Source of the DNA: an uncultured Acidimicrobiia bacterium
GTDB taxonomy: Bacteria; Actinomycetota; Acidimicrobiia; Spongiisociales; UBA5794
Direction: 5' to 3'
Assembly (NCBI GenBank): GCA_963708235.1
Contig: OY970200.1
Location: forward strand, 395,146 to 459,145
Length of the DNA stretch: 64,000 bases
The notes beneath the pieces are model-generated. The model did not search any database, was not told where the DNA came from, and saw only the letters and a list, made by a program, of their open reading frames with translations. Every line of letters starts with the position of its first letter. Positions within the stretch are counted from its first letter, which is position 1. Of this stretch, positions 9,627-55,605 are shown in pieces. A program made the translations under genes and the position numbers.

Positions 9627-11048
9627 GTGGTACGTTGCCCCATGATCATCACCATGACGACCCGGTCCGCAGCCCGTCGGCTGGTGGTGATGGCGGTGAT
9701 CGCGTCGTTCGTGTTTGCCGTCGTACCGGCGGCGTCGGCCACCGCCACCTCGGTGCCGGCACCGTCGTGTCGTGACCACGACCCGTTCACCGCCGGGCTG
9801 TCCCAGCGACTTGCCGCCGATTACCCGAACCGGCGTTTCAGCGCCTCCGTGTACGACCAGCGCACCGGATGTCACTATCACCTCAACCGGTCGACCCGGA
9901 TCACCACCGCCTCGGTGTTCAAGATCGAGGTGATGGCAGGGGTGCTGCGTCGAGCACAGCTCGAGGGGCGCAAGGTCACCGCATCGGAATGGGACCAGAT
10001 GGTCCCGATGATCACGCAGAGCGCCAACCCGCCCACCAGCTCGCTCTACCTGTCGCTGGGCGGGATGAACGGGTTCGACCCCATCCACCGCGCCTTCGGA
10101 CTCACCGAGACCTCGCTCCCCCCGCCCAAGTGGGGGGCTACGGTGACCTCTGCCGCCGATCAGGTGAAGCTGATCCGTCAGGTGCTCCTCGGGGAGTTCG
10201 GGCCGCTCACCGCAGACAGCCGGGCGCTGGCATGGAAGCTGATGACCTCGGTGGTGCCGTCACAGCAGTGGGGGATCTCCGCCGGTCTCCCCAACCGTTG
10301 GCGGTTCGCCCTCAAGAACGGGTTCTACCCGCTCGGTGGCGGCGGGTGGCGGATCAACACCGCCGGATTCGTCGAGGATCTCGCCGGAGCCGGTTACGCC
10401 GTGGTGATCCTGTCGGACGGATGGCCCACCGAGGCGGCCGGGATCCGAGCGGTCGAGACCATCGCCACCGAGATCAACACCGTGCTGGCGCCACTCAGCG
10501 CCCCACCCGGGATCCCCTATGTCGACGTCGCCGCCGACGACTGGTTCTACGAGTCGGTGGTCTGGGCCCACGAGTCCGGGGTGACCAAGGGCGCCTCGGC
10601 GATCACCTTCGACCCGCTGTCATCGCTGACCCGCGGCCAGATGGCGGCGTTCCTGGTGCGTGCCTTTGCCCTCCCCAAGATCTCCGGACCGAAACGGTTC
10701 ACCGACACCACCGGGTCGATCTTCGCCGACGACATCGAACGTCTCGGCGCCGCCGGGATCACCCGGGGCTGTAACCCGCCCGCCAACACGCACTACTGCC
10801 CCGACCGCACCATCACCCGCGGGGAGATCGCCGCCATGGTGGCCCGCGCCCTCGATCTCCCGAGGCCACCCCCCGGCGACCGCTTCACCGACGACAACTC
10901 CTCGGTGTTCGAATCCGACCTGGAACGCATGGCCGGCGCCGGTCTGCTCATCGGCTGCAACCCGCCCGCCAACACCCGGGTGTGCCCCACCACAAATGTC
11001 ACCCGCGCCCAGATCGTGGTGATCCTGCACCGAGCATCGATGGATTGA
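9627..11048 (+). CDS. Secreted beta-lactamase-family (class A-like) serine hydrolase with three C-terminal SLH-like repeats
   Basis: Signal peptide MTTRSAARRLVVMAVIASFVFAVVPAASA (possible Tat RR). S-x-x-K motif in ASVFKIEVMAG. Three C-terminal repeats ending ITRGQ/ITRGE/VTRAQ, typical of S-layer-homology domains. Alternative starts at 9642 and 9654. Confidence 0.6.
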   Translation: MVRCPMIITMTTRSAARRLVVMAVIASFVFAVVPAASATATSVPAPSCRDHDPFTAGLSQRLAADYPNRRFSASVYDQRTGCHYHLNRSTRITTASVFKIEVMAGVLRRAQLEGRKVTASEWDQMVPMITQSANPPTSSLYLSLGGMNGFDPIHRAFGLTETSLPPPKWGATVTSAADQVKLIRQVLLGEFGPLTADSRALAWKLMTSVVPSQQWGISAGLPNRWRFALKNGFYPLGGGGWRINTAGFVEDLAGAGYAVVILSDGWPTEAAGIRAVETIATEINTVLAPLSAPPGIPYVDVAADDWFYESVVWAHESGVTKGASAITFDPLSSLTRGQMAAFLVRAFALPKISGPKRFTDTTGSIFADDIERLGAAGITRGCNPPANTHYCPDRTITRGEIAAMVARALDLPRPPPGDRFTDDNSSVFESDLERMAGAGLLIGCNPPANTRVCPTTNVTRAQIVVILHRASMD

Positions 11049-11061
11049 CCGCAATCAGGGT

Positions 11062-12007
11062 TCAGATCGTCAGGTACCAGGTGCAGATGTAGCGGGTGGC
11101 GGTTGAGTTGAGGCCGGTGGCCCCGTTGTCCATCCGGGTCTTCCCGCGGTCGGTGTTGTGGAAGTCGTCGCTCGCCTTTCCCCACAGGTCGTTGAGGCGG
11201 GTGGCGATCTGATCGGGGGTGCCGCCGGCGTGGGCGTAGAGCTTGGCCTGTGCCTCTCCGATGGTCGCCGCCGCAAAGGCGCGGCCGGTTCGCTGAGCTT
11301 CGGTGAGCTTGGCGTCCCAGGGACGGAGGACCTCGGCACTGATCCGGTCGATGTCGGCGGCGTGGACCTTCTCGTGTTTCTCGACCTGGGCGGAGAGGGT
11401 TGCGTGGTTCGGGACCCCGGTCACGCCGAGTTCGATCTCGGTGGCCCCACCGAGTCGAGCCTCCTCCTCGAAGTTGAGGAACCCGTAGGTCTTGAGCGCC
11501 ACCGGGCTCGTCGTGGTGACCCAAGGCCCCGGTTGCGGGAGACTCATCCGCCACCCAGACATGATTGGTGGCAACGGCGGTGACCACCGCCTCTGCTCCC
11601 TCCCCGGTGACCCGGGTGGCGATGGTCGGTGGCGAGAGGGCGGCGCGGGCATCGCCCGCACTGGTGGATTCGTTGCTGAGCACGGCGTTGTTCAGCCACG
11701 GGGGAGTGAATCCGAGACTGAAGTCGCCTCCTGCCTGGGCGACCGCCAGATCTTTGGTCCGGGTGGTGCCGTACTGGGCCAGGACCGCACGCTGCACGGT
11801 CAACGGCCCGATCGTGGGGGACGACGTGCGGGCCAACATGCGGGACACCGTGCGATTCCCCGCCCCGTACAGGGCACCGATCAGCGACCTCGCCTCCATC
11901 TCCGGCGGTCCGGTCGATGGTGCCGGGTGGCCCGCTCGGACCGGTGGGGTCGATCGCGGTCCGGTCCGCAGGGTCCTGCCAGTGGAGAGCCGATCAGCCG
12001 TGCCCAT
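11062..12007 (-). pseudogene. Hypothetical protein interrupted by a frameshift (or sequencing error)
   Basis: Protein-like translation in the frame of ORF 10793..12007 from ~12007 down to ~11540 (..AVVTAVATNHVWVADESP). It then degenerates into Arg/Pro-rich junk. A protein-like sequence resumes in the frame of ORF 11062..11661 (MSLPQPGPWVTTTSPVALKTYGFLNFEEEARLGG...RYICTWYLTI). The frame switch is near 11510-11560. Confidence 0.4.
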
Positions 12008-12209
12008 GTGTCCAGCCTATGGCAGGTTCCCCGGGGTTGGTAGATGCGTGGTTGGTTGCGCACCAAGGGCTGTACGAGAGGGCGCACGGAGGGGCATCGG
12101 TGCCGGTCAGCCCTGGGCCGGGCGATCCTCGTCGTCGCAGCGGTGTGCCCCGCCGTCCCCCGCCGGTGGGTGCCGTTTCGCAAGGTGCCGGGCCGGGTAG
12201 CCAGGAGCG

Positions 12210-12995
12210 ATGAATTTCGCCACCTGGAACATCGACGCCGATCAGCGCGTCCTCGCCACCGCCGTACATGCCGGCCACGAACTCCGCCCGGAGATCGCCG
12301 GCGCCATGATCCTCGACGCCGGTCATCGCCTCCGCGAGGAGGACCCGTTTACCGACGAGTTGGCCGCCGCCGTCGGTTCGTGGGTCGCCGTCGAGCGATC
12401 CCGCTTCGAAGTCGACCTCAACCGGCCGGTGGATACCGCGGTGTACCGCACCCCCGACGAGTGCTGGGGGATCGACGTGTGGTCGGGCTCCGCCCTCGCC
12501 GATCCGCTGGTCGAGCGGTCGCGGTGGCTGCACGACCGGTTCTACTCCGACCTCGCCGTCGTCCTCGACGAACTGGTGGCGCGCCACGGCGGGTTCGTGC
12601 TCTACGACGTGCACTCATACAACCACCGGCGCCACGGTCCGGGGGCGCCTCCCGAATCGCCAGCCGACAACCCGACCGTCAACCTCGGCACCGGATCGCT
12701 TCCCGACCGCTGGACCCCCGTCGCCGATGCCTTCGTGGAATCCCTCAGGGACCACGAGGTGGAGGGGGAACCGCTCGATGTGCGGCGCAACGTCAAGTTC
12801 GAGGGCCGCCACGTCGCCGCATTCGTCCACGAGCGCTACGGAGATGTCGGATGTGCGCTGGCCATCGAGTTCAAGAAGATCTTCATGGATGAATGGACCG
12901 GCGTGGTGGACAAGCCGGTGCTCGATACCCTCGGCGAGGCGCTCCGGGGCACGATCGGACCGGTCGAAGCGGCCTGGAGCACGGCATGGCGGTGA
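12210..12995 (+). CDS. N-formylglutamate amidohydrolase (FGase) family protein
   Basis: 261 aa. Overall similarity to the FGase fold family (..VLYDVHSYNHRRH..). First gene of a 3-gene operon with overlapping start/stops. Confidence 0.5.
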   Translation: MNFATWNIDADQRVLATAVHAGHELRPEIAGAMILDAGHRLREEDPFTDELAAAVGSWVAVERSRFEVDLNRPVDTAVYRTPDECWGIDVWSGSALADPLVERSRWLHDRFYSDLAVVLDELVARHGGFVLYDVHSYNHRRHGPGAPPESPADNPTVNLGTGSLPDRWTPVADAFVESLRDHEVEGEPLDVRRNVKFEGRHVAAFVHERYGDVGCALAIEFKKIFMDEWTGVVDKPVLDTLGEALRGTIGPVEAAWSTAWR

Positions 12996-14134
12996 CGGAG
13001 GCGGACCTCGCCGTCGACCACGAGCTGGCCGAGATCAGCGGGCTGCTCCCGTATCTGACCTATGTCACCCCGGTCAATGCCACCGAGGCGCGCCGCCGTT
13101 TCGACGAGGACGGGGCCGAACCTGAATTCGTCTACCGGGACCTCCCCGACCTCTCAGCCATCGAGGCCCGCCTCGCCACCGTGGAACCCGACCGCGCCGA
13201 CGACCCCACCGTCGGTCACATGGCCCGCGCCCTCAAGCGCGAGCTCGAGCTGCGGCTCGACCTGATCGGCTCGCGCGGATCCCCCCGCTTCTTTCTCGCC
13301 TCGGTCGAGATGTTCGGGCATGTGGACGGATCCCTGGCGGAGCTGGCCCACCGCATCCTCTCCTCGCCGTTCCACGATTCTCAGGGACCGGCCATCGGCG
13401 CAGAACGGCTCGCCCGGCTCGCCCGGGAGGAGATCGCCATCTACGGGCGTGCCTTCCCCGAGATCGCCTCCCGGACGGAGGTCCGCGACGACATCGCCGG
13501 AATCAGAGTGGAGAACGGCGACGTGCTCATCGGATCCGACGTCCAGGTGGTCGCCGAACATGTCCGGCAACTCCTCCATCACGAGGTCGGCGTCCACGTC
13601 CTCACCTACGTCAACGGCTCGGCCCAGCCCCTCCGGATGCTGGCCGCCGGGCTCGCCGGCTACGACGAGAACCAGGAGGCCCTGGGAGTGCTCGCCGAGC
13701 ACCTCTCCGGTGGTCTCCGCCCCGGACGGCTGCGCACCCTCGCCCAGCGGGTGGTGGCCGCCCAGATGCGCAGTGACGGGGCCGGTTTCGTCGACACCCA
13801 CCGACGGATGGTCGAACTCGGCGCCACCCCAGCCGGGGCCTTCGCCACCGCCATGCGGGCCCATCGCTCCGGCGGTATGACCAAAGATGCGGTCTACCTG
13901 CGCGGGCTGGTGCGGCTCTGCGACCATCTCGCCGCCGACGGTGAACTCGACACGTTGTTCGTGGGGAAGATCGCCCTCGAAGACGAACCGCTCATCGGCG
14001 AGCTCGCCGAACGCGGCGTGCTCGTCGACCCGCCATTGCGGCCCCGTTTCCTGGACAGTCCCGCAACCAAACGCCGTCTGGACGAGATCCGGGACGGCGC
14101 AGAAATCGAAGCTTTCGGAAGGATCGCCGCATGA
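12986..14134 (+). CDS. DUF1704 / flavohemoglobin expression-modulating QEGLA-motif family protein (putative zinc carboxypeptidase-like)
   Basis: Start ATG 12986 (MAVTEADL..) overlaps the upstream stop by 10 nt. HHEVGVH metal-site-like motif and DENQEALGV, a QEGLA-like motif. Confidence 0.5.
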   Translation: MAVTEADLAVDHELAEISGLLPYLTYVTPVNATEARRRFDEDGAEPEFVYRDLPDLSAIEARLATVEPDRADDPTVGHMARALKRELELRLDLIGSRGSPRFFLASVEMFGHVDGSLAELAHRILSSPFHDSQGPAIGAERLARLAREEIAIYGRAFPEIASRTEVRDDIAGIRVENGDVLIGSDVQVVAEHVRQLLHHEVGVHVLTYVNGSAQPLRMLAAGLAGYDENQEALGVLAEHLSGGLRPGRLRTLAQRVVAAQMRSDGAGFVDTHRRMVELGATPAGAFATAMRAHRSGGMTKDAVYLRGLVRLCDHLAADGELDTLFVGKIALEDEPLIGELAERGVLVDPPLRPRFLDSPATKRRLDEIRDGAEIEAFGRIAA

Positions 14135-41438: not shown

Positions 41439-41939
41439 CTAGCGGGTGACGGCGACCGAATCCTCGAACTCGACGGAGTTGACCTCATCGGTGTAGGCGA
41501 CGGTCGGCGCCGTGATCTCCACCCACTCGAAGATCGGGCGGGGGTTGTTCGCCGGGTCGTGGACGTCGGGGCTGGTCGTGGCAACCGCCGAGATCCGGGC
41601 GTTCGAGAGTTGGATGCTGAACCGGTGCCGGGTCTCACCCGAATCGGGGTTGGTGTCGAACAGCTTGATCGTGCCGTCGAGAACCTGGTTCATGACCAAT
41701 GCCCGGTACAGCAACGGTGTGGTGCGGTCGGTCGGCTTGCGGATACGAACCGGGTCGATGGTGCGTCGCCCGGCGCGCGCCGACCCCGCCTCCTTTGCGG
41801 CCTGCCGCGACCCGAAATGCAGCTCATAGCCCTCGATGTGATCTGCGGACACATCGACCCCACCCATCGTTGAATTGGAGACGTCGCCGGTCAGGGCGCT
41901 CCCGTTGATCGTGAACTCGCAATAGAACAGCTGAGCCAT
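41439..41939 (-). CDS. Hcp-family (T6SS inner-tube-like) protein, orphan
   Basis: ATG 41939 with GAGGGAGG SD. MAQLFYCEFTING..HIEGYELHFGSRQ..IDPVRIRKPTDRTTPLLYRALVMNQVLDGTIKLF aligns with Hcp1 (IDVLAWSWGMSQ..LSFTKYIDKSTPNLMMACSSGKHY..). GC ~63%, below the local background. Confidence 0.6.
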   Translation of the reverse strand: MAQLFYCEFTINGSALTGDVSNSTMGGVDVSADHIEGYELHFGSRQAAKEAGSARAGRRTIDPVRIRKPTDRTTPLLYRALVMNQVLDGTIKLFDTNPDSGETRHRFSIQLSNARISAVATTSPDVHDPANNPRPIFEWVEITAPTVAYTDEVNSVEFEDSVAVTR

Positions 41940-42138: not shown

Positions 42139-43413
42139 ATGTTCGCTTCAGGTTTCTTCGACAACGAAGACCGGTTGATGTCACGGTCGATGCGGTTGGC
42201 CTATGCCGATGTCGACGATGCGCGATCCGACCTGGTTCGCATCGAGGGCCAGATCGCCGAACTCCGTGCCGAACAGATCCGGATCCTGGCGTGGCTCGAC
42301 GCCCGCAAGGTGGCTCGGGTCGAAAAGGCGCGGTCGATGGAAGAATGGACGGCGGCGACCCTCGACGTGACCCCGGCGACTGCCCGTGATCTCGTGTCCG
42401 TCGCCCGCAGCGAAGACGAGGTCCCTGCGGTGCGGGACGATCTCAGCAGCGGGGCCATCACGTTCGACCGGGCCGTGGCGACCGGTGCGCTGGTGGCGGC
42501 GGGCGGAACCGAACACGACGTCGCCGAGAGTCGCGATCGCGATCTCGTCGGCGTTCGCCGCCGTACCGCCCAGTTGAAGCGGGTCACCCGTGTCGACGAG
42601 GAAGAGCTGATGCGGCAGCGTCACCTGTCGATCACTCCCACCCTGGGCAACACCGCCTGGAAGATCAGCGGAATCGCTCCCGGATATGAAGGTCACGTCA
42701 TTGCCAAGGCCCTCGAGCAGGTAGCGGAGGGATTCCCGTCCAACCGGGCGGGCGGAAGCGAGCAGAGCCGTTCACAGCGGATGCTCGATGCGCTCACCGC
42801 ACTCTCCCAGGATGCCCTCGACGGACTGAACGCGGTCGATCTCGTCGATCCCGTCGACGACGATGATGACGACGACGGTCATCCGATACCGTCGACCGAT
42901 CCGGGTACCCCGATCCGGTTGGTCGGGTCATCGGTGACGGTGTTCCTCGATGGGGACCGGGCCGCACAGAGTGCCGGGGAGCTCGGTGGGGAGATCGCCG
43001 CCGGCCCGCGCATCGGCCCTGACACCTTGGACCGCATTCTGTGCGGTGGAACGATCGGTCTGGTGGTGCTGGACCGGAACGGCAAACCGGTGGTTTCGAC
43101 CCCCAGGTCCCGCCGCATCCCACCGGCGATCCGGGATTTCGTACTTCGTCGCGACGGCGGATGTGTGATGGAAGGGTGTCGAAGTCGGTATCGGCTCGAA
43201 CCTCACCACATCCTGCGCTACGCCGATGGTGGCACGCACCATGTCGACAATCTGGTGACGCTGTGCTGGCATCACCATCACGTCGTGGTTCACCGCTCCG
43301 GTGAGCGAATCGATCCCGACAGTCCGCCGCACCGTCGAAGATTCCTCCGCCCCGGCGAACGACGCGCCCTCATCGAGGCCGAACGGATCGCCATGGCCCG
43401 GGACATCGAGTGA
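42139..43413 (+). CDS. DUF222 + HNH endonuclease protein (REP13E12-like family)
   Basis: C-terminal HNH: CRSRYRLEPHHILRYADGGTHHVDNLVTLCWHHHHVVVH. N-terminal domain as in the mycobacterial 13E12 repeat proteins. AT-rich promoter region upstream. Confidence 0.7.
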   Translation: MFASGFFDNEDRLMSRSMRLAYADVDDARSDLVRIEGQIAELRAEQIRILAWLDARKVARVEKARSMEEWTAATLDVTPATARDLVSVARSEDEVPAVRDDLSSGAITFDRAVATGALVAAGGTEHDVAESRDRDLVGVRRRTAQLKRVTRVDEEELMRQRHLSITPTLGNTAWKISGIAPGYEGHVIAKALEQVAEGFPSNRAGGSEQSRSQRMLDALTALSQDALDGLNAVDLVDPVDDDDDDDGHPIPSTDPGTPIRLVGSSVTVFLDGDRAAQSAGELGGEIAAGPRIGPDTLDRILCGGTIGLVVLDRNGKPVVSTPRSRRIPPAIRDFVLRRDGGCVMEGCRSRYRLEPHHILRYADGGTHHVDNLVTLCWHHHHVVVHRSGERIDPDSPPHRRRFLRPGERRALIEAERIAMARDIE

Positions 43414-43464: not shown

Positions 43465-44853
43465 TCAGATCAGGCTCTTGGCGGTGCTGTACTTCTTGGT
43501 CTCCATGGCCGACGAGAAGGTGTCCCACTTGACCTTGGTTTTCCGATCGAAGGTGTCGATCAACTCGGTGTACTTCCCAGCGAAGTACGCCTGCTGGACG
43601 GTGGCGTTTCCGACCCGCGTGGCGAGTTTTTCCATGACCTCGTGGTCGTTCGGATAGTTGCCGCGGATGATCCCGAGGGGTTCGGTGACCTTGCGGGTGA
43701 ACAACTCGGTCAACCCCTCGTCGATGGTGGACACCCCGGCCAGCTTGTACTGGCTGATCAGCGAGTCGCGCAGCGTGGGGTCGGCGTATTTGTGCATCCC
43801 CTCGTGGAGCACGGTGCCGGCGTTTCCCCAGTTCTTGTTGACCCAGATGTGGCGTTTGGGCAGGTTGACATCGACAAAAGCGTTGCAGACGCTGGAGTCG
43901 GTGTAGCCGAACGGTCCCCATTGCCGGAAGAAGGCGTCGTCCCAGTCCTTGCCCCCGACCACCGACACCTCCCCTTCGACCCTGCGGCCCTTGGTCACGG
44001 CATCCAACCCCAGGTCCTGCATGTAGCCCTGGATGTGCTGGTCCGCCACGGGTGCCTTCATGTGCTCGGTCCAGCCCGGGGTGGCTTCGCTCAGGTCCTT
44101 GTCCGGCTGGTTGTAGACCCGCAGGGCGGGGAGCAGCGCCAGATAGACGTCCTTCTTCAGCGTCAGGCGGGCCGTGTTCATCAACGTGGTGTCCTGGGAG
44201 ACCGTATCCCGTTCGTCCTGGGTGGCCTTCTCGATAAAGGGCCGGACATCGTCGATGGTCGTTGCGGTGGCCCCGTAGTCCTCGATGAACCGGGTGATCC
44301 TCGCCTTGAACGACATCCCCTGGCGGGTGTAGACCTTCATCATCGAGGCGACGTCGGCCCCGGCGGGATCGAGCCGGAAGGTCCCGGTGCGGATGTAGGC
44401 GTCGAGACCGTCGACCTTGTCGACCATCTTGTACCAGACGGTGTCTTTGGGGTTCTCCCGGTACTCCGACGGCTCCGGCGCCTCGTCGGTCTCCAGACGT
44501 GACGTGAACGGCTTGTTGTCGTGGATGGCGACATGTGAGTCCGGCGCAAACTCCTTGCCGGACCTCCCGTGCACCAGCGAGTCCCGGTCGGTTGGCCGGA
44601 TCCGCGGCTTGGTCTTGGTGGTGATCACCGCATCGACCGGTTTGCGCTGGACGGCGACATGCGACGAGACCGCCCGATTGCCGGCGGCGTGCAGCCCGGG
44701 AACCGATGGCGGCAGCCGATCCACGCCACCGCGCCGTACGGCCGAGCGACCGGTCCCGGTGGCGCTCTGGTCGGATCGTTGCGTCGACGTGACCCGACGC
44801 GACAGCGACATTCTCGAACGGTGCGACATCCTCGAACCTCCGGAAGGAGACAC
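43465..44853 (-). CDS. Hypothetical HExxH zinc-metallopeptidase-like protein with a disordered Ser/Arg-rich N-terminus (toxin/effector candidate)
   Basis: GGAGG SD before ATG 44853. VLHEGMHKY...IDEGLTE (HExxH + downstream Glu). Lys-rich, GC ~55% versus ~70% background. Confidence 0.5.
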   Translation of the reverse strand: MSPSGGSRMSHRSRMSLSRRVTSTQRSDQSATGTGRSAVRRGGVDRLPPSVPGLHAAGNRAVSSHVAVQRKPVDAVITTKTKPRIRPTDRDSLVHGRSGKEFAPDSHVAIHDNKPFTSRLETDEAPEPSEYRENPKDTVWYKMVDKVDGLDAYIRTGTFRLDPAGADVASMMKVYTRQGMSFKARITRFIEDYGATATTIDDVRPFIEKATQDERDTVSQDTTLMNTARLTLKKDVYLALLPALRVYNQPDKDLSEATPGWTEHMKAPVADQHIQGYMQDLGLDAVTKGRRVEGEVSVVGGKDWDDAFFRQWGPFGYTDSSVCNAFVDVNLPKRHIWVNKNWGNAGTVLHEGMHKYADPTLRDSLISQYKLAGVSTIDEGLTELFTRKVTEPLGIIRGNYPNDHEVMEKLATRVGNATVQQAYFAGKYTELIDTFDRKTKVKWDTFSSAMETKKYSTAKSLI

Positions 44854-44957: not shown

Positions 44958-45668
44958 TCAATCTGTGAAGTAGCACGTGGCTGTGATCAGGGTCCCGTCC
45001 GTACCCGAGAGCACGAGCCGGTCGAGTCCCTGAAACTCCGACGGGAGGCTGACGAGCTCCTCGAGGGTCACGCCCCCACATCCTTGGAGATCGAGCGCGG
45101 CGTCGGGAATCAGGATGAAGCCATCCTCGGTGACGACCCGCTCGGGAGAACTCTCGACGATACGCCGGGTGGGCAATGCAAGACGGTCGTAGTCGGTCTC
45201 AGCCACCTGGACTGGAGTCTCATTGTCGAGTTCCTCATCCGTCAGGCTGTCGGGCATCACGATGCGCAGAGCTTCGCTGGTGCCGGTTGCGTCGACGGTG
45301 GCGATTGCATGGCACGCAAGGCGGGAGGTGGCCGATGGGGGGTCGGGGGTGAGGAGGTCGCAGGCGTGACCGATCTCGGTGTAGGCCCGAACCGCGAACG
45401 TGGTGCCGTCGTCGAGCACGAGGGTCGCCGGCCCCACGGTGATGACCGGACCGCGCATCACGATTCGGAAGTCGGCGTCTCGTCTCACCTCGACCACGCG
45501 GCCAAACACCGTGGTCGACGCAATCGCGGCATCCGTTGTCGGAGGTGCCGTTGAGGATCCGCCAGTGGTGTCCGGAACCTCGATGGCGGTCGACCCGGTG
45601 CAGCCCATGAGAACGAGCGAGATCGCCACCATCCCCACCATCGACGATGTCAACCCGGTGTACCGCAT
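44958..45668 (-). CDS. Hypothetical lipoprotein
   Basis: MVGMVAISLVLMGCTGS lipobox. 236 aa. Confidence 0.5.
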   Translation of the reverse strand: MRYTGLTSSMVGMVAISLVLMGCTGSTAIEVPDTTGGSSTAPPTTDAAIASTTVFGRVVEVRRDADFRIVMRGPVITVGPATLVLDDGTTFAVRAYTEIGHACDLLTPDPPSATSRLACHAIATVDATGTSEALRIVMPDSLTDEELDNETPVQVAETDYDRLALPTRRIVESSPERVVTEDGFILIPDAALDLQGCGGVTLEELVSLPSEFQGLDRLVLSGTDGTLITATCYFTD

Positions 45669-47180: not shown

Positions 47181-49982
47181 GTGTTCGCCGACCCTGCCGT
47201 CGAAGCCACCTTTGTCCCCGCCGACCCGCCACGCGCCGGCTGGATGGCGTTGTGGAGGTTCGATGGCGCCATCGGGTCCGCAGACGACGACCTGGAGTTG
47301 GTGCTGCCCGCTGGCCGGTCGGTACGGCGTCGCACCGTTGCGGTGCGGCGTGTCGCCCTCGACGACATCATCGATCCCTTGATGGAGTTGGCGGCCACCG
47401 CCGAAGTGCGACCTTCGGTGCGGGCGTGGGCCACGGCGACCCGGCTTGCCGTGGACCTGGTGGGTCGGGGTCGGATCCTTCCCGCCACGACCGCCGGCGG
47501 TGGGGACGCCTGGAGTCTGGGACCTCTCGACCCCGACGATGTCGAGCGGCGTCGGCGCCTCGGAGCGGCACTTCCTCCTGCCGCCCATGCCGTGCCATTG
47601 CCCGGCACCCGTCCGATACGGGTCTGGTCGGCTGACGTCCTGGTCGATGCCTTCTCCGATGCGATCGCCGATGTGCTTCCCCGCACCGCCGCCGCACCGC
47701 TTGCCGCCGGGCACCCGGCATTCGCCACCCGAGCGGTGACACAGGTCGATGTCGCTGCCCCATGGTTCGCCACGGTCACCGCCGCCGACGACGAGGCGAC
47801 GGTTGCGCTCCGCCTCGAACCGCCCGGCGACGATCAGGCGGCGTTCGCCGGTGTCCTCCTGGTGCAGAGCCGTCGCGATGCCAGCCTGGTGGTGCAGGCG
47901 GAGGACCTGTGGTCGATGCCGTCGGCGGTGCTGGCCCAGTTCGGAGACGTCGATACGACGCTGCTGGTGGCGTTGCGACGAGGAAGCCGGGCCTGGTCAC
48001 CGCTTGGTCGGCTCCTCGAAGACACGCGGCCGGCCCGACTCGAACTCACCGATTCCGAGGTGGACGAACTGCTCGGCGACGCCGCTGATGCGCTCGCCGC
48101 CGCCGGAATCCAGGTGCTGTGGCCGTCGGAGTTGCTCGCCTCGGTCAGCCTCCGTCCGGTGGTGAGCACACCGACCCCCGCCGCAGTCGCCGGGGCGGGA
48201 TTGACGATGGAGTCATTGCTGACCTGGCAGGCGTCGCTCGACGGGTTCCCGCTCACCACTGCCGAACTCGCCGCCCTCGCCGACGCAAAGCGCCCGCTGG
48301 TGCGGCTGCGGGGCCGTTGGGTGCGGGCCGATCCGGAGCGCCTGGGTCGGCTGCGCCGCCGACGGACCCTTGGTGGAGGCGCCGCCCTGGCGGCGGCTCT
48401 GGGCGGGGAACTGCGCGTCGACGGGGAGCTGATCGAAGCCGATGTCGAGGGCCCGATCGCCGATCTCGCCCGACGACTGCGCAGCTTCGAGGGCGCCGGT
48501 TCCGACGGTGATCGCATCGGCACCGAACCCGACGGGCTGGAGGCGACGCTGCGGCCCTACCAGCTGCGAGGGCTGAGCTGGTTGGTCGAGATGGCGGAGC
48601 TGGGCCTCGGCGGGATTCTCGCCGACGACATGGGTCTGGGCAAGACCGTCCAGATGCTGGCAGCGATCCTTGCCCGCAACCACGCCAGACGACGCAACGG
48701 CGAGTCGGCACAGCCGACGCTGGTGGTATGCCCGGCGACGCTGCTCGGCAACTGGGAGCGGGAGGCCAACCGCTTCGCACCCGAGCTCCCGGTGCGCCGG
48801 TTCCACGGCGCCGGCCGGACCCTCGAGGATCTCGCCGCCGACGAACTGGTGCTCGCCACGTATGGCGTGGTGCGCCGCGACGCCGCCATGCTGGCACCGG
48901 TGGGATGGGGGCTGGTCATCGCCGACGAGGCGCAGGCGATCAAGAACCCGCTGGCGGGCACCGCCCGGGCGTTGCGTACCGTTCCCGCCGCCGCCCGGTT
49001 TGCGCTCACCGGTACCCCGGTGGAGAACCGGCTGACCGAACTCTGGGCGATCCTCGACTGGACCACCCCTGGGCTACTCGGCCCGCTGGAGACGTTCCGA
49101 CGTGAGGTGGCGATCCCGGTGGAACGCAACCGCGACCCGCATGCCACCCAGTCGCTGGCACACCTGGTCCGACCGTTCCTGCTCCGACGCCGCAAGTCGG
49201 ACCCGACCATCGTCCCCGAGCTGCCTCCCAAGACCGAGACCGATCGGGTGGTCCCGCTCACCGTCGAGCAGGCCACCCTGTACAAGGCGGTGGTCGACCA
49301 GACCATGGACGAGATCCGCAACGCCGAGGGGATCAACCGGCGCGGGCTGGTCCTCAAGCTGCTCAACGCCCTCAAGCAGATCTGCAACCACCCGGCGCAG
49401 TACCTCGATCAGCCGGGGCCGCTGGCGGGACGGTCCGGCAAGCTGACCGCAGCCGTCGAACTGCTCGAGGTGATCGGATCGGAGGACGCCGCCGCCCTGG
49501 TCTTCACCCAGTACGTCCGGATGGGGCGTCTTCTCGAAGAACACCTCTCGGCGAAGGGGATGCGAACGCTGTTCCTCCACGGGTCGCTGACGGTGCGTCG
49601 TCGCCAGGAGATGGTCGATCGTTTCCAGGCAGGCCACGCCGACGCCTTCGTCATCTCGCTCAAGGCCGGTGGCACCGGGCTCAACCTCACCCGGGCGAGC
49701 CACGTCATCCACTACGACCGCTGGTGGAACCCGGCCGTCGAGGATCAGGCGAGCGACCGGGCGTGGCGGATCGGCCAGGACCAGCCGGTCCAGGTACACC
49801 GGATGGTGTGCGAGGGGACCGTGGAGGACCGCATCTCCGCCCTGCTCGCCACCAAGCGGGAGCTGGCCGAAGCGGTCGTCGGCGGGGGGGAGGCGTGGAT
49901 CACCGAAATGGGTGACGACGACCTCGCCGACCTGGTGGCGCTCTCCGCCGAGACCAGGACGTCGACGGAGATTGGGTCATGA
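47181..49982 (+). CDS. SNF2/RAD54-family helicase (HelZ-like) with a ~450-aa N-terminal extension
   Basis: Motifs LADDMGLGKTVQ (I), DEAQAIKN (II), helicase C QASDRAWRIGQ. GTG start. Confidence 0.8.
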   Translation: MFADPAVEATFVPADPPRAGWMALWRFDGAIGSADDDLELVLPAGRSVRRRTVAVRRVALDDIIDPLMELAATAEVRPSVRAWATATRLAVDLVGRGRILPATTAGGGDAWSLGPLDPDDVERRRRLGAALPPAAHAVPLPGTRPIRVWSADVLVDAFSDAIADVLPRTAAAPLAAGHPAFATRAVTQVDVAAPWFATVTAADDEATVALRLEPPGDDQAAFAGVLLVQSRRDASLVVQAEDLWSMPSAVLAQFGDVDTTLLVALRRGSRAWSPLGRLLEDTRPARLELTDSEVDELLGDAADALAAAGIQVLWPSELLASVSLRPVVSTPTPAAVAGAGLTMESLLTWQASLDGFPLTTAELAALADAKRPLVRLRGRWVRADPERLGRLRRRRTLGGGAALAAALGGELRVDGELIEADVEGPIADLARRLRSFEGAGSDGDRIGTEPDGLEATLRPYQLRGLSWLVEMAELGLGGILADDMGLGKTVQMLAAILARNHARRRNGESAQPTLVVCPATLLGNWEREANRFAPELPVRRFHGAGRTLEDLAADELVLATYGVVRRDAAMLAPVGWGLVIADEAQAIKNPLAGTARALRTVPAAARFALTGTPVENRLTELWAILDWTTPGLLGPLETFRREVAIPVERNRDPHATQSLAHLVRPFLLRRRKSDPTIVPELPPKTETDRVVPLTVEQATLYKAVVDQTMDEIRNAEGINRRGLVLKLLNALKQICNHPAQYLDQPGPLAGRSGKLTAAVELLEVIGSEDAAALVFTQYVRMGRLLEEHLSAKGMRTLFLHGSLTVRRRQEMVDRFQAGHADAFVISLKAGGTGLNLTRASHVIHYDRWWNPAVEDQASDRAWRIGQDQPVQVHRMVCEGTVEDRISALLATKRELAEAVVGGGEAWITEMGDDDLADLVALSAETRTSTEIGS

Positions 49983-51187
49983 GCGGGCGACGCCGTGGCG
50001 AGTTCACCACCACCTGGTGGGGGCGGGCGTGGATCGAGGCGCTGGAACAGCGTGCCAGCCTCGACCCCAACCGGTTGCCGCGCGGTCGCACCTACGCCCG
50101 CCACGGACACGTCGCCGGGTTGGAGTTGGCGCCGGGAGCCGTGTCGGCGCTCGTGCAGGGGAGCCGGCGGCAGCCGTACCGGGTGAAGGTGGCGATGCGT
50201 CAGTTCACCGAAACGGATTGGGATCGACTCCTCGATGCGGTGGTCGCCAGGGCGGCGCATGCGGCGGCGCTCCTCGACGGCGACCTCGATCCCGGGATCG
50301 TCGAGGACGCCCGTGCCGCCGGTGTCGAACTCCTCCCCGGTGCAGGCGACCTGCGCCCACGCTGCTCGTGCCCGGACTGGGCCGACCCGTGTAAACACTC
50401 GGCGGCGGTCTGCTACCTGGTGGCGAGGGAGCTCGACAAGGACCCCTTCGCCCTCCTGCTGTTGCGGGGACGACCCAGAGACGAGATCCTCGACGAGATG
50501 CGTCAGCGGCGTCGCGGCGCAACCACCGTCGATGCGCCCGCACCCGGGGTGCCGGGAGAGGGAGCCGACGCAGGTATCCGCGCCACCGAGGCGTGGCGGC
50601 GGGAACCCGGTGCGCTGCCCGAAGTCCCGGCGGTGCGTGCCCACCCCGGCCGGTTGGCGACCTGGCCGGTCGACCCGCCACCGTCGGCGCCGTTCACCGC
50701 CGGCGGGCTGATCGCGGTAGCCGAAGACGCCGTCGAACGGGCCTGGCGGATGGCCCGGGGCGACACCGGTTCCCATCTGGGACTCGACCCCGATGCCGAT
50801 CTTGCCCGTCGCAGCGCCGCCCGGCTCGACACGGCGACACCGCCCGCGACGCTGGCCGAACTGGCGGCGGCAGCCGGGATCGATCGGCGAACCCTGACCC
50901 GCCGTGCCGAGGCCTGGCGCCACGCCGGCGAGGACGGACTCCGGGTCATCACCGAGTCACGCTGGAGACCCGATCCTCTGCTCATGGCCGAGGCCCGGGA
51001 TCGCCTCGCCCAGCTCGGCGTCGCCGTCTCTCGGATCAGGACCGACCGCAACGCCCTCACCATCGGTCCCCGCCATTTCCGACTCGGACACGACGGCCGC
51101 TGGTGGCCCTACCAACGTCGCTCCAACCGCTGGGAACTCGCCGGCCCACCCGCCGACGACATCGATGAGCTGTGGACCGCCGAGTAG
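49979..51187 (+). CDS. SWIM zinc-finger protein (partner of the SNF2 helicase)
   Basis: ATGA overlap. CSCPDWADPCKHSAAV is a CxC...CxH SWIM motif. Confidence 0.75.
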   Translation: MSGRRRGEFTTTWWGRAWIEALEQRASLDPNRLPRGRTYARHGHVAGLELAPGAVSALVQGSRRQPYRVKVAMRQFTETDWDRLLDAVVARAAHAAALLDGDLDPGIVEDARAAGVELLPGAGDLRPRCSCPDWADPCKHSAAVCYLVARELDKDPFALLLLRGRPRDEILDEMRQRRRGATTVDAPAPGVPGEGADAGIRATEAWRREPGALPEVPAVRAHPGRLATWPVDPPPSAPFTAGGLIAVAEDAVERAWRMARGDTGSHLGLDPDADLARRSAARLDTATPPATLAELAAAAGIDRRTLTRRAEAWRHAGEDGLRVITESRWRPDPLLMAEARDRLAQLGVAVSRIRTDRNALTIGPRHFRLGHDGRWWPYQRRSNRWELAGPPADDIDELWTAE

Positions 51188-55102: not shown

Positions 55103-55540
55103 TCAGGTTGCGAGTTCGACGCTCTCACAGGCGATGGTGATGGTCTCGATGGCGATGTCGTTGCTGCCGGCGTCGAGCGTCGGTCCCTCGTACATCGACG
55201 GCCATGCGTTGAAGAAGTTCCACCGGGCCACCTCCTGTCGACGGCGGTCGAGCAGGATCACCGAGATGGTGCGACGTTCGTCCTCGCCGCCGGCGACCGT
55301 CTCGAACCACCGCCACAGGTTCGGGTTGCCGTCGTATCCCCGGGTCAGCTTGAGGTCCCCGATCTCGACCGAGCCCATCAGGCGGCGTGCGCTCAGTCTG
55401 CGGTCGTCGCCCTCGCGCACCCGCATCGGCTGTGCCGAGATCTTGGGGAGGTCGGCGATGATGAAATCACTCACCTCGACCCCGGATATCTCGACGATGA
55501 AGTTGAATGCGCTGAACGGGTCGCCGTCTCGTGTGGTCAC
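55103..55540 (-). CDS. Phage T4 gp19-like / eCIS Afp1-type tail tube protein, orphan
   Basis: GTG 55540 with AAGGGGG SD. FNFIVEISGVE..KLTRGYDGNPNLWRWFE..ISVILLDRRRQEVARWNFFNAWPSMYEGPTLDAGSNDIAIETITIACESVEL matches the TIGR02241/PF06841 pattern (ISVILLD..RW..NAWP.K..GP...A.GN.VAIETLEIAHEGL). Confidence 0.7.
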   Translation of the reverse strand: MTTRDGDPFSAFNFIVEISGVEVSDFIIADLPKISAQPMRVREGDDRRLSARRLMGSVEIGDLKLTRGYDGNPNLWRWFETVAGGEDERRTISVILLDRRRQEVARWNFFNAWPSMYEGPTLDAGSNDIAIETITIACESVELAT

Positions 55541-55605
55541 CTCTACCCCCTTGTCGTCGCCACCGTCACCGGGGGTTGCCGAACCGCCGGTGGACGCCGT
55601 TCAGA

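Follow-up and report, generated by a model that had tools for sequence, protein, structure and literature searches.

What is the lysine-rich, metallopeptidase-like gene that lies in a 64,000-nucleotide stretch of an uncultured Acidimicrobiia genome (assembly GCA_963708235.1, contig OY970200.1, positions 395,146 to 459,145; hereafter the window), and is it, as an original prediction made from the sequence alone had proposed, a horizontally acquired effector that could form a relic pair with a nearby Hcp-like tube protein? The reading that we favor, with moderate confidence, is that the gene is an orphan member of a family of exported metallopeptidase effectors of the polymorphic-toxin or contractile injection system (CIS) cargo type. 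The family is undescribed and would consist of probable zinc-protease toxins, whose activity, export, toxicity, and neutralization are all predicted from sequence. Polymorphic and CIS-cargo toxins with immunity genes are already known as a kind; new are the toxin domain, an annexin-like adaptor, and a small partner family, which are absent from Pfam, NCBIfam, and PADLOC and have no solved structural relative. The window instance is an atypical orphan of its family.

The gene and its predicted zinc-peptidase domain

The open reading frame (ORF) list of the window places a minus-strand ORF at 43465-44853, with 462 codons counted from a GTG. The ORF is present as originally described, but its start is likelier to be the ATG at 44829, 7 nt past a Shine-Dalgarno-like GGAGG (44837..44841, minus strand) read from the sequence, than the GTG at 44853, which lies 8 codons further upstream. 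With the preferred start, the complete gene (43465..44829, minus strand) encodes 454 amino acids plus a stop codon, and its translation is a 100% match to the database protein P0001, which comes from a 3.74-Mb contig. It is a real, intact, expressed-looking gene with native codon usage, and it shows no sign of decay because every invariant family residue is kept. From the N terminus, the protein comprises a disordered leader (residues 1-118; 44476..44829), a poorly modeled middle stretch, a helical module (residues 155-239; 44113..44367), and a C-terminal domain (residues 240-454; 43468..44112) that we take as the toxin domain.

The C-terminal domain is likely a zinc metallopeptidase, and the AlphaFold2 (AF2) domain model and the invariant residues predict that it is a zincin of the gluzincin type. 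It contains HEGMH (residues 342-346; 43792..43806), with H342 and H346 as predicted zinc ligands and E343 as the predicted catalytic residue, and DEGLTE (residues 370-375; 43705..43722), in which E371 or E375 is predicted to be the third zinc ligand. The alignment of 35 close homologs (A1) has 40 invariant columns, which include H342, E343, G344, H346, K347, Y348, and A349 of the first motif region and D370, E371, G372, T374, and E375 of the second. Among 67 long divergent members (alignment A3), H342, E343, H346, E371, G372, T374, and E375 are all at least 90% conserved, D370 not having been scored in this set. The gluzincin-like combination of HEGMH and a downstream Glu, first read from the single sequence, is upheld by this conservation.

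DEGLTE begins 24 residues past HEGMH, and E371 and E375 are found 25 to 29 residues after H346, on a modeled helix spanning residues 368-385. In the full-length AF2 model the predicted local distance difference test score (pLDDT) is above about 88-90 from about residue 155-160 onward, and the domain-only model (residues 240-454) has a pLDDT of 93.8 and a predicted template modeling score (pTM) of 0.91. The elements of the model follow one another in the order strand, helix, two strands, HExxH helix, short helix, and long helix with DEGxTE. This order is the zincin arrangement, in which the third ligand would be expected from the "glutamate helix".

The query gave no useful match to Pfam, NCBIfam, or PDB sequences even at E ≤ 10, Pfam returning only a spurious KaiC match, and nothing useful was found in PHROGs or PADLOC. 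Pfam matched it to none of M27, M34/ATLF, M91, and Tox-MPTase1-5, the families named originally, nor to M85, at E ≤ 10, and the query has no clear housekeeping peptidase assignment in Pfam, NCBIfam, or PDB. When the 35 close relatives were scanned with Pfam (E ≤ 1), weak Peptidase_M61 matches appeared in 10, the best at E 0.0065 (in a relative, not in the query), together with one Aspzincin_M35 match at 0.19. Foldseek found no significant PDB neighbor for the full-length or the domain model, and none in BFVD for the full-length model; the best PDB E values were 0.19 for the full-length model (an annexin) and 1.2 for the domain model (angiotensin-converting enzyme, ACE). The only peptidases that surfaced among these non-significant matches were gluzincins: ACE, ACE2, aminopeptidase N, and M32 carboxypeptidase. 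We consider the gene product to be probably a gluzincin-type metallopeptidase of an undescribed family, its motif conservation being observed in the alignments and its fold class being suggested by the models. The sole match of a PDB profile search, over 20 residues of CARMIL, was put down to chance. The zincin domain was also compared with DUF4157 as a possible divergent version of that domain, and was rejected as such at an hhalign probability of 1.5%; the strand-strand-HExxH alignment is topologically sensible yet unsupported.

A conserved C-terminal unit behind variable N-terminal modules

A word-indexed search of 5.8 billion clusters returned 42 homologs, all unnamed, in which conservation with the query is limited to its C-terminal 56-65%. 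When 1.84 billion representatives were searched exhaustively with a profile, 695 clusters were recovered at E ≤ 1e-3, of which 293 reached E ≤ 1e-10 and 114 reached E ≤ 1e-30. The closest relative, P0002, is 51% identical over 88% of the query. The conserved unit consists of an annexin-like repeat and the zincin domain, and the family is spread over metagenome-assembled genomes of Actinomycetota and Chloroflexota; the viral contigs of IMG/VR yielded no member. Among the 150 representatives listed, the family match is at the C terminus of the protein in almost every case, and the proteins range from 200 to 1335 aa. N-terminal to it, Pfam detects eCIS_core (PF13699, formerly DUF4157) in 5 of the 35 close relatives and in 27 of the 67 long divergent members (best E 5.7e-34), and other members carry an SH3_3-like module or extra annexin repeats. 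DUF4157 is a documented marker of CIS cargo, in which it is found N-terminal to toxin domains (PMC8213781, PMC11297309), and eCIS_core is reported to be highly CIS-specific (PMC8213781). PF13699 was not found in the query by Pfam at E ≤ 10, and a hidden Markov model (HMM) built from the family's own DUF4157 domains found nothing in six-frame translations of the 64-kb window.

Tandem annexin-type repeats (GWGTDE) are present upstream of the zincin domain in P0068, P0081, and P0089, and Pfam Annexin matches 4 of the 67 long members (best E 1.3e-14). The helical module of the query is formed by six short helices in the AF2 model, and its helices at about residues 178-238 align with the GWGTDE repeats of these three proteins at an hhalign probability of 97.8% and E 6.6e-13. 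A single helical repeat homologous to the GWGTDE repeats is retained by every family member, the query included; the annexin-like repeat of the query lacks the GxGTDE loop.

The leader of the query (residues 1-118, pLDDT <50) is hydrophilic, basic, and rich in Arg and Ser, with 16 Arg, 15 Ser, and a net charge of +10, in agreement with the disordered Ser/Arg-rich N terminus described originally. The summed hydropathy of the first 35 residues is -40.9, and the charge over residues 6-21 is +3. No hydrophobic segment was found in the protein by hydropathy, without a dedicated signal-peptide predictor: the highest 19-residue Kyte-Doolittle mean is 0.67, and there is therefore neither a signal-peptide h-region nor a membrane helix. 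The profile fits the absence of a Sec or Tat signal, and the original statement that there is no signal peptide stands on this basis. We propose that the leader may act as a loading or export sequence. It matches the hydrophilic, slightly basic, disordered leaders reported for cargo of extracellular CIS (eCIS), a feature that is not specific (PMC11297309; bioRxiv 10.64898/2026.05.27.728243). In AlgoCIS, a disordered N-terminal region is required for tube loading and DUF4157 is dispensable (bioRxiv 10.64898/2026.05.27.728243).

A helix-like motif, LxLQRxxGNxAV, occurs at about residues 35-70 in 47 of 160 members having an N-terminal extension; a looser version of the pattern matched 0.5% of shuffled sequences. 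To our knowledge, published work reports no conserved (loading) sequence in eCIS cargo leaders, and this recurrent motif could be a sequence-defined loading signal. A profile of the motif, searched against a large protein database, returned 338 candidates, all of them proteins of only 60-90 aa. In alignment A1, the query has a degenerate copy of the family motif LxLQRxxGNxAV ... VQR at residues 45-64 (GLHAAGNRAVSSHVAVQRKP; 44638..44697, minus strand), with the trace GLHAAGNRAV...VQRKP, in which the only surviving parts are AGNRAV and VQR. In P0057, P0061, P0066, and P0071 a CxCxxC sequence is found shortly past LxLQRxxGNxAV (e.g., ERGCGCPTCRS and GKGCSCASCSS), and suggests a small metal-binding or disulfide element in these leaders. 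The middle stretch of the query is common only to the query and its closest relative. When the middle region (residues 59-158) was compared with the SH3-like module of other members, using just two query sequences, the hhalign probability was 0.8%.

A partner gene downstream of the relatives

In the relatives, a same-strand ORF of ~120 aa is found directly 3' of the peptidase gene, and the stop and start codons often overlap. These partner ORFs are mutually homologous, with pairwise E values down to 1e-27, and the partner family has no Pfam or PADLOC match. By profile, the partner is directly downstream in 14 of 16 distinct loci from genomes or long contigs, and it is likewise present in 13 of 13 metagenome loci of close relatives having downstream DNA, giving 27 of 29 assessable loci overall. 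By analogy, the layout of a peptidase gene followed by a ~120-aa ORF looks like that of a toxin and its immunity gene, the immunity role being putative.

The partner was not found in the window by tblastn or by unfiltered hmmsearch (--max) over six frames, the best E value being 0.22 at an unrelated site. Loss of the partner in the window lineage is the simpler reading because the closest relative, P0002 (locus L002), has it. The Hcp-like protein was tried as a displaced partner and ruled out, with an hhalign probability of 0.2%. The resemblance to effector toxins that was proposed originally gains support at the level of the family, from its C-terminal domain position, DUF4157 in 27 of 67 long members, and a downstream ORF at 27 of 29 loci. 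The window copy has neither DUF4157 nor the partner.

Some of the relatives' loci depart from the usual layout. The peptidase gene is split over two frames in L013 (~9407-10812) and L015 (~4821-5545), where the split could be a frameshift, a pseudogene, or an assembly error; the partner is kept in L013 and not in L015. In L014, a locus of a Chloroflexia metagenome-assembled genome, the partner in its longest reading (10810-11289, plus strand) starts with a lipoprotein-like signal (…LLASC), and an internal Met would restore the usual ~120-aa cytoplasmic form. The long form, if real, would mean that protection is needed outside the membrane.

Base composition and codon usage

The original prediction had put the gene at ~55% GC against a ~70% background and had read this as a strong compositional signature of horizontal acquisition. 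The measured values are 64.0% for the gene and 68.5% for the window. Composition was compared among 35 window genes picked by third-position GC (GC3). The target has the lowest total GC of the 35 (z = -2.05), so that its low GC was correctly noticed, and both its GC1 (0.582) and its GC2 (0.451) are the lowest of the set; the whole GC deficit sits in these two codon positions. Its GC3 of 0.888, however, is the second highest of the 35 genes, with only nrdJ above it, and its synonymous-codon distance to the other genes pooled ranks 15 of 35. With GC3 this high and synonymous usage ordinary, the signature of transfer was not borne out.

The protein is indeed Lys-rich, as stated originally, with 6.6% Lys vs 1.3 ± 0.7% in the 34 other window genes (z = 7.3). 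Over 155 relatives from many hosts, the conserved C-terminal ~270 residues have a mean of 6.6% Lys (7.3% in the query). The low GC of the target is due to this Lys-rich amino acid composition, which is a family trait whatever the host. Since codon usage is host-like and the Lys level is family-wide, there is no evidence of recent horizontal acquisition. No integrase and no flanking repeats were found at the target, and no tRNA or Rfam RNA was found in the window; a check of repeats, promoters, and terminators around the target gave nothing notable except a weak hairpin between the convergent genes. This genome carries a caution: total GC alone misleads, because codon usage can be fully native even where a Lys-rich gene of low GC stands in a high-GC genome.

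The genomic neighborhood

Convergent with the target is a gene for a DUF222 and HNH endonuclease protein of the 13E12 type (42139..43413, plus strand; Pfam DUF222 2.5e-7 and HNH 3.6e-4, with PHROG HNH matches), whose stop codon is 51 bp from that of the target and which takes the position of the relatives' partner gene. Its GC3 of 0.755 is the lowest in the window, and no flanking repeats were found around it. It looks more of a newcomer than the target does, and may be a late insertion.

Beyond it lies the Hcp-like gene of the type VI secretion system (T6SS) tube family (41439..41939, minus strand; 166 aa, identical to P0184), which is described here as context, its link to the target not being established. 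The gene is real, as the original prediction had it, with a Pfam T6SS_HCP match of 6e-11 and 43 bits (cutoff 23.5); TIGR03344 scores 52.8 bits, under its cutoff of 58.9. The protein belongs to a small group of 32 proteins, including those of Microbacterium sp. and Salsipaludibacter albus; these represent a small set of stand-alone Hcp-family genes from organisms in which a T6SS is not expected. No Hcp or gp19 homolog was found within 10 kb of the family members in 14 genome loci (L002-L015), and none is listed in the gene tables of L017 and L018. Five homologs of the Hcp-like protein (L019-L023) are found in unrelated contexts, with no member of the peptidase or partner family nearby. In L020 the Hcp-like homolog adjoins an EndoU_bacteria toxin gene (9073-9672), which is followed by a 108-aa ORF; this is an anecdote only.

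An orphan tail-tube gene (55103..55600, minus strand) matches Pfam Phage_T4_gp19 at 3e-33 and TIGR02241 at 92 bits, above the cutoff, and scores far under the cutoffs of the CIS1 and CIS5 equivalog models. This gp19-like gene sits between glycosyltransferase genes and the class II ribonucleotide reductase gene nrdJ, 10 kb from the target. Apart from the Hcp-like and gp19-like genes, the window ORFs scanned include no T6SS core, CIS, or phage-tail gene. Elsewhere, the window contains ABC transporters, a PhzF-like gene, SRPBCC genes, an SNF2/SWIM pair, the class II ribonucleotide reductase, glycosyltransferases, and inositol catabolism genes. The neighborhoods of the relatives consist of unrelated metabolic and regulatory genes.

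Several other genes of the window deserve a record. Directly upstream of the target is a minus-strand gene (44958-45668) whose 236-aa product has a lipobox (LMGC), zero lysine, and no family match. Two adjoining giant ORFs of 1352 and 1525 aa (927-4985 and 4986-9563, both plus strand) have a coding-like third-position GC of 0.85 and no Pfam match at 1e-5, and the second is followed by a gene for a beta-lactamase-like protein with an SLH domain (9564-11048). A putative metallocarboxypeptidase of the MATCAP family (12201-14134, plus strand; PF08014, 1.7e-72) adjoins an N-formylglutamate amidohydrolase-like gene. At 47181-51187 (plus strand), an SNF2 helicase gene (with DUF3670) overlaps the gene for a SWIM zinc-finger/helix-turn-helix protein; matches to the PADLOC models DpdE and ZorD, at 1e-116 to 1e-118, are confined to the helicase core, and no other defense components were seen.

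Weighing the explanations

If the gene belongs to an exported effector family, the leader, with or without DUF4157, would guide the protein, unfolded, into a device for export or injection, for which a CIS is the most plausible candidate. In the recipient cell, the zinc peptidase would cleave a protein or peptide substrate, possibly after the annexin-like repeat has targeted it to a membrane, and in the producers the small downstream protein would neutralize the enzyme as an immunity protein. In the window copy, DUF4157 and the partner gene would both have been lost or never been present, with the DUF222/HNH gene in the partner's place.

A number of observations weigh against this interpretation. 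The query is without DUF4157, either in cis or in the 64-kb window, and without the partner gene, and an intact toxin without immunity is unusual. The only tube gene of CIS relevance in the window is the orphan gp19-like gene, 10 kb off, and the N-terminal motif of the query is degenerate. Injection-system structural genes are absent within ~10 kb in the gene tables of four relative loci, and for 12 more loci Pfam analysis of 150 neighbor ORFs revealed no recurrent CIS gene among the 25 commonest of 160 families. The assignment to the zincins depends on the motif, the secondary-structure order, and weak profile matches, because there is no significant PDB neighbor. Published eCIS-associated toxins (EATs) are mostly encoded at most 10 genes from a CIS operon (PMC11297309).

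The main rival, which we regard as possible but unlikely, is a non-exported intracellular protease with a small inhibitor or substrate, i.e., a toxin-antitoxin (TA)-like, regulatory, or undescribed phage-defense pair, in which the DUF4157 fusion would be a general processing domain and the window copy a decaying or re-purposed solo protease. Such a pair would fit the finding that the cassettes occur here and there between unrelated metabolic genes rather than in CIS operons; a tight operon of two genes whose stop and start codons overlap is also in keeping with TA-like pairs, and the lack of a signal peptide agrees with this rival. However, a C-terminal position behind swappable N-terminal modules, in proteins of up to 1335 aa, is the pattern of polymorphic toxins, and 40% of the long members carry eCIS_core, with its reported CIS specificity (PMC8213781). 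The long disordered hydrophilic leader would be unexpected in a cytoplasmic regulator, PADLOC has no match for either gene, and viral contigs of IMG/VR hold no family member. It is scarcely credible that the gene product is an ordinary peptidase, housekeeping or secreted, from a known MEROPS family: although HExxH with a downstream Glu is widespread among housekeeping gluzincins and the weak Peptidase_M61 matches point the same way, the query matches nothing in Pfam, NCBIfam, or PDB sequences even at E ≤ 10, it has no significant structural neighbor, the family is rare (42 matches among 5.8 billion clusters in the word-indexed search), and the protein has no signal peptide and a variable architecture among its relatives.

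The two remaining explanations concern the history and the surroundings of the gene. Recent acquisition of a foreign gene on a small genomic island would be compatible with the lowest total GC among the 35 window genes (z = -2.05), with a rare family that is patchy over Actinomycetota and Chloroflexota metagenome-assembled genomes, with the lowest window GC3 (0.755) in the adjacent DUF222/HNH gene, and with the lack of synteny between the target neighborhood and the locus of the closest homolog. We nevertheless judge it improbable, given the second highest GC3 (0.888), the unremarkable synonymous codon usage, a GC deficit limited to codon positions 1 and 2 and accounted for by 6.6% Lys, which is the family mean across hosts, and the failure to find a tRNA, an integrase, or flanking repeats. 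Still harder to sustain is the relic or minimal effector/tube pair suggested originally, in which an Hcp-type tube would serve the peptidase as chaperone or carrier. A genuine Hcp-family gene does share the strand of the target and lies 1.5 kb downstream, the gp19/TIGR02241 gene adds a second orphan of the tube family at a distance of 10 kb, and the L020 homolog stands beside an EndoU toxin gene and a small ORF. The adjacency is not conserved from either side, though: no Hcp or gp19 gene is within 10 kb of the members in L002-L015 or listed in L017 and L018, and no family member or partner is near the five Hcp-like homologs. In the window itself the convergent DUF222/HNH gene stands between the two genes, no further T6SS or CIS structural gene was seen among the ORFs scanned, and the partner family shows no relationship to the Hcp-like profile.

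If the exported-effector reading of the architecture is true, the CIS-linked repertoire would gain both an enzymatic toxin domain and an immunity family that are new to it. The family hosts are soil and sediment Actinomycetota and Chloroflexota, in which CIS have barely been studied, and a domain with a high-confidence model (pLDDT 94) and no solved structural neighbor is a good target for structure and substrate discovery. A more far-reaching proposal, to which we give little credence, is that the repeat-zincin unit and its ~120-aa partner are an undescribed toxin-immunity pair with a fold that has no solved relative, that they are CIS cargo in Actinomycetota and Chloroflexota, and that LxLQRxxGNxAV is a sequence-defined loading signal. 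The window copy, without DUF4157 and partner and lying between the Hcp-like and gp19-like genes, would then hint at a non-canonical export route depending only on a tube protein.

Comparison with known systems

With the gluzincins of clan MA(E) that have a long HExxH-to-Glu spacing (M2 ACE, M32, and M61), the target domain shares an HExxH on a helix, a conserved acidic motif 25-29 residues past the second His on the next long helix, and, in the models, a small sheet and a backing helix ahead of the HExxH helix. It differs in that every match to these families is non-significant (best gluzincin Foldseek E 0.84 for the full-length and 1.2 for the domain model), and the domain is far smaller (~215 aa) and fused to an annexin-like repeat.

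The EATs tagged with DUF4157/eCIS_core, such as Cgo1 and Cgo2 of AlgoCIS and Tme of Streptomyces, follow the same three-part logic of a disordered hydrophilic leader, an optional DUF4157, and a variable C-terminal effector, and 27 of 67 long family members likewise have eCIS_core N-terminal to the zincin domain. Many published EATs have no obvious immunity gene (PMC8213781), whereas a partner is near-universal in this family. Also in contrast to the EATs, the query has no DUF4157 in cis or nearby, and neither the target within the window nor the 16 related loci were seen beside a CIS operon. As far as Pfam shows, the effector domain of this family is not among the described EAT domains.

T6SS Hcp-effector pairs are alike in having an Hcp-family gene near a putative effector without a signal peptide. 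They differ from the present locus in that the window scan revealed no T6SS core genes and the adjacency is absent from every other locus examined. In addition, the host looks like a high-GC Gram-positive type, judging from DUF222, the SLH proteins, and the taxonomy of the homologs, and a T6SS would not be expected in it.

The polymorphic toxins of Zhang and Aravind include Tox-MPTase families with cognate immunity genes, and the present family resembles them. It differs in that no Tox-MPTase or other peptidase Pfam model matches, the comparison being by Pfam models only, and in that the partner family is unannotated and the window copy has no partner. The likeness is in the architecture: a C-terminal toxin domain with an HExxH motif stands behind interchangeable N-terminal trafficking modules, and a small coupled gene is found directly downstream in 27 of 29 loci.

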